From contig CAYWJO010000003.1 in the NCBI GenBank assembly GCA_964458565.1, forward strand, positions 32,001 through 96,000: a stretch of 64,000 bases of DNA, given 5' to 3'. Shown here in pieces: positions 27,663 to 35,058 of the stretch. Position 1 is the first letter of the stretch. Each line of letters begins with the position of its first letter. The DNA is from an uncultured archaeon. GTDB lineage: Archaea; Asgardarchaeota; Thorarchaeia; Thorarchaeales; Thorarchaeaceae. Made by a program: the position numbers and the translations under genes. The notes beneath the pieces were generated by a model. That model saw nothing but the letters and a program-made list of their open reading frames with translations, ran no database searches and was not told where the DNA came from.

Positions 27663-28886
27663 TCACAACCATTCAAAAGCATCATTCCAAGTTACACTCG
27701 ACGCTGAATAAGGATTGAGATATATAGTCTTGAAGAACTCAACTTCTTTGCCCTTTGCTTTAGCTTTATCAAATGTTGGTTTTACAAATTGCGTACGACC
27801 TATATAGTAAGTAAAGATGTAAGGTGCCCAAAAGTTTAGACTTCCATCTGGATTCATTGGACGCATGAAAGCAATCGAATTCTTGGCATCATCTTCTGGC
27901 CTTATTTGTTTCTCAGCAATGTAACTTATCGTTTCCTCAATTGTGAAATTATCTCGATTCATGAAGAGAGCTGCATTGATAGACACCATCCTAGCTAGCT
28001 TATACAAGACATCCACAGCTTTTGTTGAAGGATCAGTATCTTTTAGTCCAAGAAATTCCTTGGCTGTATCGGCAGTACCTTCGGATATAACACATCGACC
28101 TGTGTGAAGTGGTACCACTGTTAAATCAAGCAAGTCATTATCCAGATAGGCTTTTTCTCTCCATAGATTCGAAACATGATGTTCGTATTCATGGTAGATA
28201 ACAGCAAGAAGGTTATGTTTATTCATGGGCCGATCAATGTTGAACTCATTCACAGAACGAAATCCCCCTTGATAGTAGTTGTATCCACTCCAAGGTTCAT
28301 CACGGACAGTGCGATACTCGACTCCATTATCAGTAACTTCAGTACCCATGTACTTGTAGATGTTCTCTCTAAACTGATTAGCAACTTCTTTTGATTTGGG
28401 TTGCAGCTGATTCAGAATCACATCTTTCAAAGCTTCACCCCTCACCTCTCCTTCAGCCCTGAATCTAGTAATTCTATCTTCAAGAGACCCATCCATATAG
28501 GACAGTGCCTCATCAACCTCAATATGTGCATCCTCAATTTCCTTCTCTGAGAATTCTTGAAGTTTGATACTAAATAGATTTTCAACAAGTTCAGTATATG
28601 GAATTTCCTCACCACTCAACCAGTCGACGACAACCTTAATGGAATTTACCTCACCGATTATACACTTTTTACGAAGCTCTGGTGTAACTTCATCTAGATC
28701 ATCAATCAAGGACGAAAGATTTCTTGATATTTCTTCAGCAGGTAGTCCAGTTGCTTGCTTCTCTGGAGATAAATCATCAGGTCCAAAATACGCATCAACT
28801 AGTGGGATTCCAGTTACTTTTTTGGTGAAGTTACTTGCTTCTCCACAGAGTCTTACGTATCGCTCTAAGGTGTCCATTGAAATCAA
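27663..28886 (-). CDS. Zincin-like (HExxH) metallopeptidase, DUF885-like
   Basis: HEYEHH with downstream ISEG third-ligand motif; VDAYFGP N-terminus; YIFTYYIG. Confidence 0.65.
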   Translation of the reverse strand: MISMDTLERYVRLCGEASNFTKKVTGIPLVDAYFGPDDLSPEKQATGLPAEEISRNLSSLIDDLDEVTPELRKKCIIGEVNSIKVVVDWLSGEEIPYTELVENLFSIKLQEFSEKEIEDAHIEVDEALSYMDGSLEDRITRFRAEGEVRGEALKDVILNQLQPKSKEVANQFRENIYKYMGTEVTDNGVEYRTVRDEPWSGYNYYQGGFRSVNEFNIDRPMNKHNLLAVIYHEYEHHVSNLWREKAYLDNDLLDLTVVPLHTGRCVISEGTADTAKEFLGLKDTDPSTKAVDVLYKLARMVSINAALFMNRDNFTIEETISYIAEKQIRPEDDAKNSIAFMRPMNPDGSLNFWAPYIFTYYIGRTQFVKPTFDKAKAKGKEVEFFKTIYLNPYSASSVTWNDAFEWL

Positions 28887-28936
28887 TAATTCAATCAGAG
28901 GTCATCTATTTAACATCTATTGAAGACAAAATCAAA

Positions 28937-29692
28937 CTAAGCTCGAATACTGAATGTTGCCCATTTATTCTCAGTCCCATCCTTATTACACAAAGTGAAT
29001 GTAGCATCTTCCCTTGTCAACTCGATTCTTGTATGAAGCTGGGATGTTGCACCTCGAATTCGTCTTGATAGCAGGGTTCCAGTTGTGCAGAATATTATAT
29101 CATTGAGACGCCAAATCCACGGGACGTGACGATGGCCACTCAAAACAAGAGAGCATCCTGAATCATCAAGAACTCCCAAAACATCACCGGCATCTTCGAG
29201 AACATTGTGTTCTCGCCCTGTATGAGGGACCGGTAGGAGATGATGATGTAATGCAAGAATACGAATCTTGTCCTTAGCCCTACCAAATAGGTCCTTGATT
29301 TGAGGATATCTTTCACGACCTAGGTGACCAGCATCATTGTCAGGCTCAGCGGTGTCAGCACCATATAGAACGATGCTCTCATCTTCGAATATCTTGAAAC
29401 GTTCGCCAAATAGTTTCTCGAAATGAATAGAACCATAATTTCGCTCATCATGGTTACCAGGAATTATGACTGTTGGGAGATTGAATCCGTCAATACCCCT
29501 CTGGAAGTATTCGTACTCGTCCTTTAATCCTTCACTTGTCAAATCGCCGGTAATTACTAAGAGAGGTGAAATACAATCACTAGCTGTTTTTTCAATCTTG
29601 TCCAGAATATCACGGAAGTCCTCAATCGTGACACCGTATTCTCCAACATGAATATCACTCATATGAAAAATAGTTTTCACGATTTTGCCCAA
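28937..29692 (-). CDS. Calcineurin-like metallophosphoesterase (Icc/CpdA type)
   Basis: SDIH, TGDL, PGNHD, HHH and SGHRH motifs. Confidence 0.9.
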   Translation of the reverse strand: MGKIVKTIFHMSDIHVGEYGVTIEDFRDILDKIEKTASDCISPLLVITGDLTSEGLKDEYEYFQRGIDGFNLPTVIIPGNHDERNYGSIHFEKLFGERFKIFEDESIVLYGADTAEPDNDAGHLGRERYPQIKDLFGRAKDKIRILALHHHLLPVPHTGREHNVLEDAGDVLGVLDDSGCSLVLSGHRHVPWIWRLNDIIFCTTGTLLSRRIRGATSQLHTRIELTREDATFTLCNKDGTENKWATFSIRA

Positions 29693-31870
29693 CTATCTTC
29701 CGCCTCCGGACACACAGGCACTATGACATGCACTGTGACAAGCAGAGTGACATACGCAAGCACTATGGCATGCACTATGGCAAGCTGAATGGCAAGCATC
29801 GTGTGATACACAGGCACTATGACATGCATCATGGGATACACATCTACTTGTTCCTTCGATGATTGGTTTCAAAGGTTCACTGATAATCTGACCTACTCCA
29901 TTTACTACATCACCAATAGTGTTGGTAACATTGCCAATAATCTGGGATGTAGTAGAGGCTATGTCACCGACGGCACGACCAACACCATCCACGGCATGGC
30001 CTGTTGCAGTGGAAAGATCCTGAAACCACTGTGGAATCTGGGGCGTACCGAAAGATGGTCCAGGGTCTCTAAAGACCCGACCGATATCACGATCATGCCT
30101 TGGGTGCATATAGATCCAATACCAAGCCCACCCATATGTACGATATGGTCTGGTGAAGTAGTACTCTGTGCGACCGTCAACAGTGGGATTGGATGCCAAT
30201 TCGTCCCATGCACCATCAACCATCTCTTCATGATGTTCTTTGGTTGCCTCGAAATCAGCATCCCAGGATTTCTCTTGCACCTTATTGGCTATCTCTTCAA
30301 TCATGTCTTCAAGTAATTCTGGGTCTAGTTCATCGTCCTTTATTGCATCAACAAGCAGTTGCTCATAGTATGTGAGTTCTTCAAGTTTGATTCCGGTATC
30401 TGAAAGTTTCAAGGGATCAGTAGAGATGACCCGTACAGTACCTTTTTTCACACAGGACATGAGTATCATAGAAACTAATTTTTGTCTGCTCGTGTTCACG
30501 AAAAATGCAGATTCAACGGGGTCTAAATCTGCAACTGTACCTGGAGTCCCGTAAGTTTCAATCCCAATCTCAGGACTTGTATATCCTGTCGTTGTATCGG
30601 TTTTTTCCCATTTTGCACCATATGGATTGACTACACGTTTGTAGGTGGTATAAATCAATGCGAGTAACAGACTCCCACCGATTCCAAAGACAATGAGGAG
30701 AGTCAAAGTATCAGCATCAATCAGAGGTGGAATGAACTCAGTCACATAAATATCGACAGTAAAACCGATCCAATCACTGAAATTGAGATTCGAAGCGGAG
30801 ATGACAACTCCAATTGGGATTATCTCAGGTACATTTGCTGGAAGAATCATGAATTCCAATTCTCTTGACTCTCCTGCGATTAAATCACCGATGTTTGTTG
30901 GATCAGAACCAGAAAGGAGTGTAAGGTTCTCTGGAATAGTCAGGTCTACAACAACATCTTCAAGGGTATCATCTCCAAAATTGAAGACATTGAATGATAG
31001 TATGAATTCTTCATCTGCATATGCATTGATTTGATAGCTTGAAATTGAATATCCGATAACGCCAGGTTCAATGAAAGGTGCGTAAAATGTCCAATTAGTG
31101 TAATGCCAAACACGAAAGTGGTCGTACGCGTCAAGGGAATTATGTGCGAGAACAACTGTGAAGTATCGAGGACTTGCTCCGGAATTGAAGGGATAGGCGA
31201 GTAATTCTTCATAATCGTATTCAACTTGTACAGTGTGTGGTTGATTCCAGATGCCTCTCTCTGTGTCTTCAACATATCCAGCGTATGCTGCACCTGAAGC
31301 ATTTATACCATGGTCGAGTGAAATCCATGAGGGATCCATCTCAATTGGATAGATTACTTGAACCTGCTCATAATCAATAGGGTGATCCCATTCAACAGGA
31401 GCCCAATTGAAGACTCCCAAATCACCATAAGTTGTACTTGTTGTTTTCACTATTATCCGTTCTGTGCTGAAGTATCCGAATACTACCTGAACAGTATCAC
31501 CGGTTTGCGCCCTATCGGGGTCATCCATAACATAAGGCTCAGACCAATCTAGGTAAAACCCACCGCCGTATGGATCGCGATCCAGAGTTTTACGGTTTCC
31601 ATCAACGATTGCATATGCTCTACTCGTATCATATTGGTAATTCTCCTGAATACCCTCGATAAAGAGACCTCCCATTGAACCACTCGTTACGGTAAGTGTA
31701 ATCCAATATGTGACATTGATTCGACCATTTGGCATGACGACAACGTCAACATACACACTTTCAAGATCATATGCAAGATCCTGACTCAGAACAGGATTAG
31801 CATATGTACACGGAATCAATGTCAAGAGAAAGACGAACGCAATTACAGTTTTCATGTGTAGATATCTCAT
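29693..31870 (-). CDS. DUF2207-like single-pass membrane protein with Ig-like domain and C-terminal Cys/His repeat; candidate radical-SAM substrate
   Basis: Signal peptide; YDLESVYVDVVVMPNGRINVTY; CARDB-like domain; TM; LDPVESA..SCVKKG..LTYYEQLL; tail CVSHDACHSA...CVSGGGR. Confidence 0.75.
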   Translation of the reverse strand: MRYLHMKTVIAFVFLLTLIPCTYANPVLSQDLAYDLESVYVDVVVMPNGRINVTYWITLTVTSGSMGGLFIEGIQENYQYDTSRAYAIVDGNRKTLDRDPYGGGFYLDWSEPYVMDDPDRAQTGDTVQVVFGYFSTERIIVKTTSTTYGDLGVFNWAPVEWDHPIDYEQVQVIYPIEMDPSWISLDHGINASGAAYAGYVEDTERGIWNQPHTVQVEYDYEELLAYPFNSGASPRYFTVVLAHNSLDAYDHFRVWHYTNWTFYAPFIEPGVIGYSISSYQINAYADEEFILSFNVFNFGDDTLEDVVVDLTIPENLTLLSGSDPTNIGDLIAGESRELEFMILPANVPEIIPIGVVISASNLNFSDWIGFTVDIYVTEFIPPLIDADTLTLLIVFGIGGSLLLALIYTTYKRVVNPYGAKWEKTDTTTGYTSPEIGIETYGTPGTVADLDPVESAFFVNTSRQKLVSMILMSCVKKGTVRVISTDPLKLSDTGIKLEELTYYEQLLVDAIKDDELDPELLEDMIEEIANKVQEKSWDADFEATKEHHEEMVDGAWDELASNPTVDGRTEYYFTRPYRTYGWAWYWIYMHPRHDRDIGRVFRDPGPSFGTPQIPQWFQDLSTATGHAVDGVGRAVGDIASTTSQIIGNVTNTIGDVVNGVGQIISEPLKPIIEGTSRCVSHDACHSACVSHDACHSACHSACHSACVCHSACHSACHSACVSGGGR
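29696..29842 (-). repeat. Coding repeat: 7x CHSA and 2x CVSHDA (11 Cys, 9 His in 49 aa)
   Basis: Read directly from the translation; units use varied synonymous codons. Confidence 0.95.
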
Positions 31871-31937
31871 TACTTCACTCCCTATCTATATCACATCATT
31901 CTGTAGATAAGAATCTCAGATGATATGGCTTGATTGC

Positions 31938-32333
31938 TTAATCACCACGTCTTGCTCTCAGAATGTCAGCCTGTGCAATTGTCAAATTAGATAGGTCGGC
32001 TTTAGCCTCAGCCCAATCTACAAGATCAGGAAATTCTTGAATCATCCCACCCCAAATGAGATGATAGACACGCTTCAGAATTGTTCGAGGGTCGGATTCT
32101 TTGCCAACGTATTCGAAGAAACATTTGATTGAAGCGGGAGACTGATCAGTCATCTGTTCTGGGATTTCTGTTCCAAATCCAGCAAATGCTACTTCTAATT
32201 CTTTAAGAACGTCCATGCGTTCACGTATACCTGATGCTATGACAGGCAAATCAATATCATACGCAGAGAAACTCATTACGAGCTTCTTGTCAGTGATTTT
32301 TCCAAAAGGTAGAGTAAGTTCTCCTGTGCTCAT
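31938..32333 (-). CDS. Hypothetical protein
   Basis: Likely ATG at 32333 after GAGG; lies between the repeat-tail gene and the radical SAM gene. Confidence 0.7.
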   Translation of the reverse strand: MSTGELTLPFGKITDKKLVMSFSAYDIDLPVIASGIRERMDVLKELEVAFAGFGTEIPEQMTDQSPASIKCFFEYVGKESDPRTILKRVYHLIWGGMIQEFPDLVDWAEAKADLSNLTIAQADILRARRGD

Positions 32334-32445
32334 GTTATCTCGCCTCAAGATTATGCTATCAATTTCTTCTCCTGTTGATTGATAAGCCTTTCAGGTGGTG
32401 TAATAACAAATACTAATCCTTAAGACATCAGGTCGAAAACACAGA

Positions 32446-33873
32446 ATGACGATGTATCCTCTAAATTACGACTATACATTAGACGATCTTAAGTGGATAC
32501 CAAAATTTATTGAAGAAGTCAAAGACTACTTCTTTGCTCGACCTGAAGACAACCTTCTCATTTTACGTCCGAACAAAGTCATGCATCTTAATGAAACCGG
32601 AATGAGGATGCTAAAGTTATTACTGGATGGTAATTCTCTAGAGGCTGTTGTCGATTATTTCATCAAAAACCACCGAGCCGACCAGCAAACTGTTCTCAAT
32701 GACATTGCTGCGTTTGTTAATGATTTGAGAAACATGGTTTCAGGAAATCAAAATATCTATTCATATCAAACAGCCAAAATTATGCCCTTTGGTGAGAAAC
32801 CAATAAATTACCCAGTTTTGAGTGAAATCGCTTTGACTTATCGATGCAACAACAAATGCCGATTTTGCTATGCATACTCACCATATCGGGAATCCAATGA
32901 GATGAGTACTGAACAGGTCAAGAGAATCATCGATATCATTGTTGATGATGCGCATGTTCCTAGTCTCTCGTTTACCGGAGGTGAGCCCACTCTCAGGCAT
33001 GATCTTTTTGAACTGATAGAATATGGTCGTTCCAAGGGATTGCGAGTCAACCTGATAACCAATGGACGTAAATGTAGTGATTCGAATTATATACAGCGTT
33101 TGGTCGATGCAGGGTTGAACAGTGCCCAAGTCTCAATTGAAGGGCCTGATGCTCTTACACATGATGCAATAGTAGAGATACCTGGTGCATTTGACCAAAC
33201 GGTTCAAGGTATTAGGAATCTTCGACAAACCGACATCTATACGCATTGTAACACTACAATTTGTAAACCAAATGTCGATAAACTTGAAGAACTAGTTGAT
33301 TTTCACGCAGATGAGCTTGGATTATCATACTTCAGTATGAACATGGTCATCTACACAGGAACTGCTGCTAAGCTGCGAGATGAAATGGAAATAACCTTCT
33401 CGGAAATTGGAAGCATTGTAAGACGAGTAAAGAAACGAGCTAATAAGAAGGGGATCCAATTTGTATGGTACGCCCCAACACCAACATGTCTATTCAATCC
33501 CATAGCACATGGACTTGGAGCAAAACAGTGTGCAGCCTGTGATGGACTCTTATCTGTTGATGCAGAAGGCGGTCTCCTCCCGTGTTCTTCATTTAGCGAA
33601 CCCGTAGGAAATCTACTAGAAGAAGGATTTGAAAAAGTTTGGAACAACAGAGCTGCTAAATTCTGGAGAAGTAAATCATATGCACCAGAAGGATGCCAGC
33701 AGTGCAAAGAATTCGATTACTGCTACGGAGCTTGTCCGTTATACTGGGATGTTCATGGATTTGATGAGATTAAAAGTTACTGGCCTGAAAAGAGTCGAGT
33801 TGTATCAAAAATTGATCAAATGCGGCTAAATCTTCGAAGAAGAATCAAAGGTGATCAACACGGGATTACTTAG
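32446..33873 (+). CDS. PqqD/RRE-radical SAM-SPASM peptide maturase
   Basis: N-terminal RRE-like LNETG..LKLLLDG.SL..VV..F..DIAAFVNDL; CNNKCRFC; FTGGEP; SPASM cysteines CAAC..LLPC..CQQC..YCYGACP. Confidence 0.9.
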   Translation: MTMYPLNYDYTLDDLKWIPKFIEEVKDYFFARPEDNLLILRPNKVMHLNETGMRMLKLLLDGNSLEAVVDYFIKNHRADQQTVLNDIAAFVNDLRNMVSGNQNIYSYQTAKIMPFGEKPINYPVLSEIALTYRCNNKCRFCYAYSPYRESNEMSTEQVKRIIDIIVDDAHVPSLSFTGGEPTLRHDLFELIEYGRSKGLRVNLITNGRKCSDSNYIQRLVDAGLNSAQVSIEGPDALTHDAIVEIPGAFDQTVQGIRNLRQTDIYTHCNTTICKPNVDKLEELVDFHADELGLSYFSMNMVIYTGTAAKLRDEMEITFSEIGSIVRRVKKRANKKGIQFVWYAPTPTCLFNPIAHGLGAKQCAACDGLLSVDAEGGLLPCSSFSEPVGNLLEEGFEKVWNNRAAKFWRSKSYAPEGCQQCKEFDYCYGACPLYWDVHGFDEIKSYWPEKSRVVSKIDQMRLNLRRRIKGDQHGIT

Positions 33874-33918
33874 TAGCATCATGTGAAACTTAATATCACA
33901 AACCAATATTCCAACTCT

Positions 33919-35058
33919 ATGCAATTTTCTGACCTTATCACTCCTACTGCTGTTATTGACTTTTCAAGACTTCTAACTAACATTGAAAGAATGGCAGCAC
34001 GAGCAGAATCCTTTGGAGTTGGGTTAAGACCTCACATAAAAACTCACAAATGTCCAAGAATTGCGACTCTACAAACAGGCAAAGGCACGAACGGAATATT
34101 AACGTCAACCATCGGAGAAACAATTGCATTTGTAGGTAGCGGTTTCAGGGATATTATTTATGCAACTCCAATAACACCTGATAAGGTACCTGCAGCAGTG
34201 GAACTCAGCACTAAATCTAAACTGAGAGTCCTGGTTGACAATGAGATGATTTTACATCATCTTGAGAGAGAGTGCAAATCGAAGAAGCAAGAGATTGAGG
34301 TCCTGATTAAGATTGACTGTAATTATCATCGATCTGGAGTAAATCCCAATCATCCATCATCTTTGGAACTAGCAAAATCAATTCGGGATTGCAATCACAT
34401 TGCATATGCAGGAGTATTAACACACGCGGGTCATGCATACAATGCGAGGTCTGCTGAAGAAGTAGGTGCGATAGCTGAAGAGGAACAAGATGCAGTCCTT
34501 CAATTTGTAGAAAAGTTGGAGGGAAATGATATTGAGAGCGAAATTGTGAGCATAGGCTCTACTCCGACAGTTATGAACACAAATGGATTCAAAAAAGGGA
34601 TAACTGAGATTGGACCCGGCAACTATGTCTTCTTTGATTACACACAAGTAGCACTCGAGTCTTGTTCAGTTAATGATTGCGCGCTCTCGGTTTTTGCAAA
34701 GGTTGTAAGCTCATATTCTGATAGAATCATAGTTGATGCCGGAGCAACAGCTCTATCAAAAGACAACGGACCAACGCACATAGATCTGGATTGTGGATAC
34801 GGAAAAGTCTTCTCGGATTACCAAATGGGCGAACTTGCTGAGGACACCAAGATTACATCACTCTCCCAAGAACTTGGAAAAATTGAGATTGGACCTGATT
34901 CACCATTAAGGGGAAAAAGACCTGGTGACTACATCAGGATACTACCCAATCACAGTTGTCTGGTGTCGAACTTATTTGACAAGTTCTTCATTTCAAGTGA
35001 TGAAACAATCACTGATCAATGGTCCATCAATTGGGACAGGTTTTCGACAATCCTTTAA
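33919..35058 (+). CDS. Fold-type III PLP enzyme (D-threonine aldolase / D-serine dehydratase-like)
   Basis: RPHIKTHK, HAGHAY, SIGSTPT, GNYVFFD, PNHSC; likely ATG at 33919. Confidence 0.85.
   Translation: MQFSDLITPTAVIDFSRLLTNIERMAARAESFGVGLRPHIKTHKCPRIATLQTGKGTNGILTSTIGETIAFVGSGFRDIIYATPITPDKVPAAVELSTKSKLRVLVDNEMILHHLERECKSKKQEIEVLIKIDCNYHRSGVNPNHPSSLELAKSIRDCNHIAYAGVLTHAGHAYNARSAEEVGAIAEEEQDAVLQFVEKLEGNDIESEIVSIGSTPTVMNTNGFKKGITEIGPGNYVFFDYTQVALESCSVNDCALSVFAKVVSSYSDRIIVDAGATALSKDNGPTHIDLDCGYGKVFSDYQMGELAEDTKITSLSQELGKIEIGPDSPLRGKRPGDYIRILPNHSCLVSNLFDKFFISSDETITDQWSINWDRFSTIL

Follow-up and report, generated by a model that had tools for sequence, protein, structure and literature searches.

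SPASM enzymes of the radical S-adenosylmethionine (SAM) superfamily are known makers of thioethers from cysteine. In Methanococcus voltae, one of them, CrpC, installs thioethers on the 28.8-kDa Cys-rich protein CrpA, which is encoded next to it; the engagement of the two exceeds a short leader, the N-terminal domain of CrpA is proposed to dock CrpC, and a third, related protein improves the modification (PMC13692751). Here we describe a locus in a 64,000-nucleotide window (the whole stretch of DNA that was analysed, from contig CAYWJO010000003.1 of a Thorarchaeal genome) where the gene of a radical SAM/SPASM enzyme, P0002, and that of a 725-residue single-pass membrane protein, P0001, flank the gene of a 136-residue protein, P0006. 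P0001 ends in a 49-residue tail rich in Cys and His. On balance, we consider it probable from sequence that P0002 covalently modifies this cytoplasmic tail on intact P0001, processively at Cys and probably through thioether cross-links.

P0001 and P0002 resemble the Crp pair in that an archaeal enzyme, in which a recognition element (RRE) for RiPPs (peptides made on ribosomes and modified after translation) is fused to radical SAM and SPASM domains, adjoins a Cys-rich repeat protein, the substrate in the Crp pair and the putative one here. CrpA is soluble and built of 17-residue repeats with C-x-x-Q/D motifs, whereas P0001 is a membrane protein. CrpC was assigned to TIGR04463 (PMC13692751), a model that is not in the best 25 of the 86 NCBIfam matches of P0002. 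The Crp paper names neither a membrane protein nor an Asgard archaeon, and its filter (at least 5% Cys for proteins of more than 250 residues) would exclude P0001 with its 1.8% Cys (PMC13692751).

Repeats with Cys at every fourth residue, as in P0001, are also the hallmark of two groups of predicted radical SAM/SPASM targets, TIGR04117/PF27846 and the ACGX system (TIGR04340/04341). Those targets are short, soluble peptides of about 100 residues, as the length of the models also indicates, whereas the repeat of P0001 stands at the C terminus of a 725-residue membrane protein. We know of no experimental characterisation of either family. TIGR04117 matched the tails of P0001 relatives weakly (13-27 bits; cut-off 50) and did not match residues 640-725 of P0001 at E<=10, and PF27846 ("rSAM target Cxxx repeat") is found in precomputed matches on relatives such as P0031. 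P0002 scored 96.3 bits with TIGR04340, the ACGX enzyme model, below its cut-off of 400.

The maturases SkfB, AlbA, CteB, PapB, and StsB share with P0002 an N-terminal RRE, a radical SAM core, and a SPASM/twitch domain, and their substrates have Cys-rich cores (PMC10288494). These sactipeptide and ranthipeptide substrates are, however, short and exported, and P0002 scores only 97 against 625 for StsB and 87.5 against 340 for PapB. In QhpC/QhpD of quinohemoprotein amine dehydrogenase, a radical SAM enzyme introduces multiple cross-links within a protein subunit instead of a natural-product peptide (PMC7876137). QhpC is, unlike P0001, a small secreted subunit in which the cross-links serve a quinone cofactor and which has no repeat tail or membrane anchor. 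The QhpC cross-links are Cys thioethers.

We found no account of the present cassette in the literature on the tail string, on DUF2207 with radical SAM enzymes, or on Asgard RiPPs. What would be new compared with print is the type of substrate, a cytoplasmic tail borne by a large single-pass membrane protein, as well as the Cys/His form of this tail in Asgard archaea. The (Cys-Ala)n...GGGR cassettes described below share with P0001 and P0002 the single-pass superfamily, the cytoplasmic domain, a Trp/Tyr-rich segment, and a GG-x-[R/H/W] end, and their enzymes belong to the same family (31-37% identical to P0002) and adjoin the tail gene. Unlike these (CA)n tails, in which Cys and Ala alternate, the Thorarchaeal tail has Cys at every fourth residue with His-Ser/Asp-Ala between; P0002 lies in a clade apart from the (CA)n-linked enzymes; and Thorarchaeia have a divergent enzyme gene and an added 136-residue gene, whereas the enzyme gene of (CA)n cassettes lies downstream.

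Enzyme, membrane protein, and Cys/His tail

The locus consists of two divergent transcription units meeting at 31871-32445. Four genes lie on the minus strand, encoding P0006, P0001, a metallophosphoesterase, and a 407-residue HExxH protein, and on the plus strand the gene of the 475-residue enzyme is followed 10 bp further on by that of a pyridoxal phosphate (PLP) enzyme. An exact-sequence look-up of four locus proteins gave no match in the searched collection. The core features are:

32446-33873, plus strand: P0002, 475-residue enzyme with PqqD/RRE, radical SAM, and SPASM domains (Pfam, above cut-offs)
about 32560-32730, plus strand: RRE of the enzyme (Pfam PqqD)
32845-32868, plus strand: CX3CX2C motif of the enzyme (Radical_SAM domain)
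about 33487-33735, plus strand: SPASM cysteines of the enzyme (SPASM domain)
31938-32348, minus strand: P0006, 136 residues, likely start ATG at 32333 (conserved adjoining gene in Thorarchaeia)
29693-31870, minus strand: P0001, 725-residue single-pass membrane protein (translation, AlphaFold2 model, homologues)
29696-29842, minus strand: 49-residue Cys/His tail, P0001 residues 677-725, proposed substrate (near-invariance among 30 loci)
30641-30715, minus strand: transmembrane helix, P0001 residues 386-410 (Kyte-Doolittle peak 2.39; AlphaFold2 helix 386-414)
30731-31783, minus strand: P0001 ectodomain, residues about 30-380 (AlphaFold2 confidence score [pLDDT] 80-95; fold matches)
30185-30589, minus strand: P0001 cytoplasmic juxtamembrane domain, residues about 428-562 (stretch common to the superfamily)

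The initial annotation had read a PqqD/RRE-like N terminus, a CxxxCxxC motif, and SPASM cysteines into 32446-33873, and Pfam scores above the cut-offs bear this out: PqqD (PF05402) at residues 39-95 (35.3 bits; cut-off 23.4), Radical_SAM (PF04055) at residues 130-286 (91.1 bits; cut-off 29.5), and SPASM (PF13186) at residues 362-421 (30.5 bits; cut-off 21.5). The cluster motif is C134-x3-C138-x2-C141, and all three Cys were invariant among 22 homologues. Eight further Cys lie in the C-terminal part (348, 362, 365, 380, 417, 420, 426, and 430); C362, C380, C417, C420, C426, and C430 were invariant in the same set and C348 nearly so. P0002 is, by sequence, a member of the radical SAM superfamily, of its SPASM subfamily, and of the maturases fused to a PqqD-like RRE, and the source genome encodes one copy of it. 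Among the best 25 of its 86 NCBIfam matches no model reached its cut-off; the highest partial scores were those of AhbD (152 bits) and NirJ2 (147 bits), each against a cut-off of 500. The solved structures nearest to P0002 by sequence were BlsE, SkfB (E 4e-17), and PqqE.

P0001 comprises, in this order, a signal peptide, a beta-rich ectodomain, a transmembrane segment, a cytoplasmic domain, a linker, and the Cys/His tail. Its only hydrophobic segments are residues 3-28 and 386-410, and the 15 residues before the transmembrane segment contain no Lys or Arg while the 15 residues after it contain four, so that the tail is predicted to lie on the cytoplasmic side and would be reachable by an oxygen-sensitive cytoplasmic enzyme. 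In the AlphaFold2 model, the beta ectodomain (residues 33-377) was confident and followed by one transmembrane helix, the cytoplasmic domain (451-560) was moderately confident, and the C-terminal region had low confidence. Translation, model, and charges agree with the earlier claim that the divergent 725-residue protein ends in the Cys/His string after a single transmembrane segment, on the predicted cytoplasmic side.

The tail holds 11 of the 13 Cys of the whole protein, plus 9 His, and contains Cys-His dyads. Its Cys are spaced by 6, 4, 6, 4, 4, 4, 2, 4, 4, and 4 residues; a conserved ...EGTSR precedes the first Cys, and the tail ends with VSGGGR. Among 30 Thorarchaeal loci, the 49 residues were 99.7% identical at the amino acid level, at a nucleotide identity of 79.5% and an identity of 46% at third codon positions. 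For the 50 codons upstream of the tail, the corresponding amino acid and nucleotide identities were 72% and 67.6%, and the P0001 homologues of the Thorarchaeal family are 55-62% identical overall. The Ser codons of the tail alternate between AGY and TCN among these loci. Purifying selection acts very strongly on every tail residue, those of the irregular CVSHDA and CVC units included, and the codon diversity rules out recent slippage or gene conversion as the source of this identity.

Of 400 Asgard genomes, 63 had one locus each with a back-translated (CHxA)2CH pattern and none had a match to the reversed control, indicating that the tail pattern is not due to chance. The source genome holds a single (CHxA)n tail. 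Most public copies of Thorarchaeal P0001 end before the tail, at contig ends (one has an adapter-derived end), and the tail is thus largely absent from the protein records returned by search; by contrast, most of the representative genomes that were searched have it in full. A heme-c-like CX3CH reading of CHSACH was discarded, the tail being cytoplasmic and His being absent from those (CA)n relatives that have the same family of enzyme.

Such a composition could also be that of a metal or iron-sulfur-binding module, acting, for instance, as a cytoplasmic metal sensor, a store, or an electron relay on a receptor-like protein, which would not be covalently modified and for which the enzyme would, for example, load or build a cluster or cofactor. 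The Cys-His dyads in a 49-residue stretch that has 11 Cys and 9 His, the Cys-x-Cys runs of the (CA)n relatives, and an invariance extending to each residue, which suits ligand geometry, all speak for this, as does the fact that CrpABC is up-regulated on pyrite and thought to bind metals (PMC13692751). We nevertheless regard it as unlikely: the (CA)n tails, which are far more common and retain the same family of enzyme, have no His, the PqqD-type domain marks enzymes acting on polypeptides, and the cassette has no conserved metal transporter or chaperone. Moreover, metal binding is compatible with modification of the tail, since a cross-linked tail could itself bind metal.

Linkage of enzyme and tail in Archaea and Bacteria

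We monitored the three genes in 85 genomes of the Thorarchaeal family and found the tail gene in 61, the enzyme gene in 62, and P0006 in 55 of them. Over 86 genomes of the family, presence and absence go together for the three genes, also when counted by genus (g5, 1/3; g8, 1/7; g9, 3/4), and 19 genomes, seven of which are at least 90% complete, have none of them. Whenever the flank reached that side, the order was kept (28 of 28 related loci), with the enzyme gene divergent from the 136-residue gene and the tail gene following the latter. In G368 and G391, where the tail gene seemed to lack the enzyme gene, a gap in a scaffold and the end of a contig account for this. In G313 (C1:757357-767330), a near-complete Thorarchaeal genome, an insertion divides the cassette. 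Public homologues of P0001 carry the name Thorarchaeota, in line with the Asgard host that had been proposed.

P0006, 63-82% identical across these 55 genomes, adjoins the cassette in all of them. It was overlooked in the initial annotation, which had rightly recognised the enzyme and the tail protein. We propose from its distribution that P0006 is a third, Thorarchaeia-specific component of the cassette and may be a helper. Its AlphaFold2 model has an alpha/beta fold (mean pLDDT 80), for which no PDB fold match was obtained at E<=0.001. P0006 had no Pfam or NCBIfam match and no similarity to P0001, and its single Cys is not conserved. It was not detected in the non-Thorarchaeal loci L031-L038 and has no detectable kinship with the third proteins of the G127 and G123 or bacterial cassettes.

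Outside this family, P0001-like proteins with tails such as ...ACHNACHAACHGACVSGGH were found in five other Asgard families (G127, G123, G080, G001, and G130). Their enzymes, encoded 0.1-4 kb from the tail gene, are 42-49% identical to P0002 and are its closest full-length matches outside the Thorarchaeal family. In its readable part, the tail of G130 is a hybrid that combines (ACHx)n and (CA)n repeat types. A profile search with P0001 in 1.84 billion cluster representatives retrieved 513 relatives at E<=0.001; of the best 150, 34 had (ACHx)n...ACVSGG-type tails and 40 had (CA)n-type tails, and most of the remainder were truncated. A radical SAM/SPASM gene lay directly after the tail gene, or overlapped it, on four of five informative contigs with (ACHx)n tails, bacterial and other. 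One CHxA-type cassette stands beside a sigma-54 activator, which marks that contig as bacterial, and the one bacterial CHxA-linked enzyme compared was 46.5% identical to P0002. Taken together, the enzyme and the tail are kept together in at least four gene orders. Linkage of tail and enzyme across genomes had been named beforehand as a test, and it is kept in Thorarchaeia, in bacteria, and in the five further Asgard families. With 34 of the best 150 of 513 relatives, the (CHxA)n tail forms a sizeable subfamily and is not a peculiarity of the source genome. The plain Gly/Ser tail assumed to be the norm gave way to (Cys-Ala)n...GGGR, the normal ending of P0001 relatives.

In Heimdall-, Hod-, and Loki-type Asgard lineages, P0001 relatives of 500-640 residues carry this (Cys-Ala)n...GGGR-type tail, with an enzyme gene 50-220 bp past the tail gene and an enzyme that is 31-37% identical to P0002. 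We then scanned the genomes of 185,579 species for an exact 10-residue tail-end pattern followed by a stop and obtained at least 120 loci, spanning Chloroflexota, Planctomycetota, Acidobacteriota, Methanomassiliicoccales, Thermoplasmatota, and Heimdallarchaeota. Among the matches listed, 109 (CA)n...GGGR tail genes had at least 500 bp of downstream DNA, and 81 of these were followed by an enzyme gene within 700 bp on the same strand. By ending, the enzyme was downstream in 70 of 77 genes with the main 17-residue tail ending, in 11 of 11 with the (CA)5-6 GGGR ending, and in 0 of 20 in which the repeat of the 17-residue ending is shifted by one unit.

The shifted ending goes with a second cassette layout. 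In six bacterial loci of this subtype with enough upstream DNA to judge (L080, L113, L119, L124, L128, and L159), one or two radical SAM genes lie upstream, one product being about 40% and the other about 25% identical to reference enzymes; upstream of the tail gene in L141, which has the same ending, no radical SAM gene was seen. A third tail type, ...C[AV]CAC[AV]SCAC[AV]CAC[AV]SCACACA[GS]GGA[GR], is carried by relatives of 516-550 residues (P0059, P0061, P0062, P0069, P0071, P0082, P0087, P0090, and P0092).

In a FastTree phylogeny of 140 enzymes, the 11 CHxA-linked ones formed one group (Shimodaira-Hasegawa-like support 100), nested in a 51-row set with (CA)n-linked enzymes (support 96). 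Together with the hybrid tail of G130, this nesting indicates that the Thorarchaeal locus is a derived variant of the (CA)n cassette, in which, by sequence, enzyme and tail changed together. P0001 and P0002 belong to a family of cassettes pairing a Cys-repeat-tailed membrane protein with a radical SAM enzyme, as judged from the shared cytoplasmic domain, the Cys repeat ending in GG-x-[R/H/W], and the neighbouring PqqD-radical SAM-SPASM gene. Linkage and co-diversification of enzyme and tail extend across archaea and bacteria.

These distributions bear on a further alternative, in which the enzyme acts on P0006, on an unannotated peptide, or on a small molecule, and the tail protein is merely a partner or regulator. 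P0006 lies between both genes and tracks them exactly in Thorarchaeia, and the highest partial scores of P0002 are those of tetrapyrrole-modifying SPASM enzymes. However, P0006 is well folded, with one variable Cys, was undetected in L031-L038, and is not detectably related to the third proteins of bacterial cassettes. The gaps flanking its gene measure 67 and 97 bp and leave no room for a hidden gene encoding a short Cys-rich precursor; no such precursor is conserved at the locus either, in keeping with the earlier remark that no small precursor open reading frame lies beside the enzyme. Because the Cys-repeat tail is, in addition, the sole partner in all lineages and the enzyme clades follow the tail types, we hold this alternative to be very improbable.

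Proposed modification of the tail

We favor modification of the tail on intact P0001. That the Cys-repeat tail is the sole partner kept in every lineage points to the tail as the substrate. The polypeptide-recognition domain of P0002, along with the lack of room for a short Cys-rich open reading frame, argues in the same direction, and the precedent of CrpA and CrpC, with modification of a 28.8-kDa archaeal protein, favors an intact membrane protein. P0001 would span the membrane, its beta-rich ectodomain facing outwards and its last ~310 residues, tail included, lying in the cytoplasm. By means of the PqqD-type recognition domain at its N terminus, P0002 would dock on this cytoplasmic part; it would use SAM-derived radicals, and its two SPASM clusters would deal with electrons and with the thiol of the substrate. 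The tail cysteines would be modified one after another, and the likeliest product would be a series of intramolecular thioether cross-links (of the sactionine or ranthionine type) to neighbouring residues. The outcome would be a cross-linked tail on a full-size membrane protein and no released peptide, with P0006 as a Thorarchaeia-specific helper. Substrate, chemistry, docking site, and the action of the product are proposals.

Both repeat types share the Ala-Cys steps and the terminal C-[A/V]-x-GG-x-[R/H/W] but not the Cys spacing or the His, suggesting that the reaction takes place at Cys and perhaps at Ala. The (ACHx)n form is informative about mechanism in this respect, since its change of repeat spares the Ala-Cys steps, the terminal C-V/A-S-GG-x-R/H, and the cytoplasmic domain, and loses the Cys spacing and the inter-Cys residues of the (CA)n tails.

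The part of P0001 that the enzyme would recognise may be the juxtamembrane domain. Residues ~428-562 consist of helices and a hairpin in the AlphaFold2 model (pLDDT 57-88). Profile positions ~410-560 were the best-matched stretch in most of the best 150 of the 513 relatives, and distant Asgard matches to P0001 likewise fall in this cytoplasmic domain. By analogy, it may be a docking or leader-like module for the enzyme. When P0002, SAM, and three 4Fe-4S clusters were co-folded with P0001 residues 570-725, a fragment that lacks domain 428-562, the score was 0.01 against a mark of 0.32, which speaks neither for nor against docking.

Several points weigh against tail modification, or against the strength of its support. 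As no curated family cut-off was reached, the reaction of P0002 cannot be read from homology, and a pairing of RRE and leader was not recognised in P0002 and P0001. Repeats of the Cys/His and Cys-x-Cys kind are well known as metal ligands, and metal binding would by itself account for the invariance of the tail just as well. In G313, the enzyme gene lies about 5.5 kb from the P0006 and tail genes, and no radical SAM gene was seen beside the tail gene on one 4.8-kb CHxA contig (that of P0049). Finally, the counts include many closely related genomes, and the tallies therefore overstate independence.

Alternatively, the tail could be a membrane-tethered precursor that is cut free after modification as a true RiPP, the large protein serving as leader or scaffold. 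P0001 does resemble a leader plus core in its architecture, an HExxH protein is encoded downstream in many Thorarchaeal loci, and one bacterial cassette (one contig, seen in three copies) has a Peptidase_M50B gene before the tail gene. Nevertheless, the distribution of the HExxH protein differs from that of the cassette, no exporter is conserved, and the tail is cytoplasmic. A conserved folded cytoplasmic domain plus a transmembrane segment far exceeds the needs of a leader, and there is no evident cleavage motif save the conserved ...EGTSR. Release of the tail thus appears highly unlikely to us.

Starting from modification on the intact protein, we tentatively put forward a broader and more doubtful proposal: in-cis RiPP-type radical chemistry might mature a family of single-pass membrane proteins of Archaea and Bacteria, giving them a functionally needed, thioether-laddered tail that is possibly metal-binding or redox-active. 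If this holds, the enzyme clade would have co-evolved with the alphabet of the tail, (CA)n or (ACHx)n, and the module would be borne in Thorarchaeia by a protein with an ectodomain of the Ost1/ribophorin I fold. If P0002 does modify the tail, a full-size membrane protein would be the direct target of a widespread post-translational modification in Asgard archaea and many uncultured anaerobes, and RiPP-type chemistry would reach beyond small secreted peptides to proteins that stay in the cell.

Ectodomain fold and neighbouring genes

The ectodomain of P0001 consists of an Ost1/ribophorin-I-like beta-sandwich (residues 30-265) followed by a macroglobulin (MG)/immunoglobulin-like domain (271-379). 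For residues 30-265, the best solved-structure match obtained with VIA-align was the yeast oligosaccharyltransferase subunit Ost1 (6ezn_A, Z 16.4), with a root mean square deviation of 3.3 Å over 189 residues, the matching part of Ost1/ribophorin I being its membrane-proximal lumenal domain. Human RPN1 gave Z 14-15 with this first domain, and the N-domains of ERAP1 and LTA4H formed the next group (Z ~12); MG domains matched the ectodomain with Z ~12. Pfam Ribophorin_I did not match P0001. The Ost1-like ectodomain may bear on the reported Asgard "ribophorin" homologues and on the nature of DUF2207-type proteins.

The "DUF2207-like" label first given to P0001 could not be upheld, as neither DUF2207 (PF09972) nor DUF2207_C (PF20990) matched it even at E<=10. 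Neither model matched 11 relatives of P0001 at E<=0.1 or E<=0.01. Weak leads towards such proteins came from language-model feature scores (0.82-0.88 against clusters bearing DUF2207 or DUF2207_C) and from shape matches (TM score 0.25-0.37).

The interval 27663-35058, first proposed as the extent of the system, proved too wide, including three genes outside the core:

28937-29692, minus strand: P0005, metallophosphoesterase (Pfam Metallophos)
27663-28886, minus strand: P0004, 407-residue HExxH-motif protein (motif; distribution unlike that of the cassette)
33883-35058, plus strand: P0003, PLP enzyme of the D-serine-dehydratase/alanine-racemase-N type (Pfam match)

All three were excluded from the system because their distribution is unlike that of the cassette. 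P0004 occurs without the cassette in G320, G323, G325, G326, and G395, is missing from the cassette-bearing genomes G321, G322, G385, and G386, and lies on separate contigs in several genomes. P0005 was unmatched beside the tail gene in about 12 of 29 Thorarchaeal loci, some with full 1.5-kb flanks. P0003 is present in cassette-less genomes, and at E<=1e-40 it was not found in genera g9 and g16, both of which have cassette-bearing members.

CHxA-type cassettes beyond Thorarchaeia add a protein of 290-420 residues that belongs to no Pfam or NCBIfam family; on the four contigs with a radical SAM/SPASM gene at the tail gene, it usually comes next after the enzyme. By tblastn this protein was not found in Thorarchaeia, which have the 136-residue protein instead. 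Copies lie at L031:7829-8884 (minus strand), L032:2132-3121 (plus), L195:5217-6191 (plus), L197:9152-10024 (plus), and L201:9422-10678 (plus). Identity is 33% between the copies of G127 and G123 and 27% between those of L195 and L197 (E 5e-20). The three copies that were read are hydrophobic and resemble membrane proteins.

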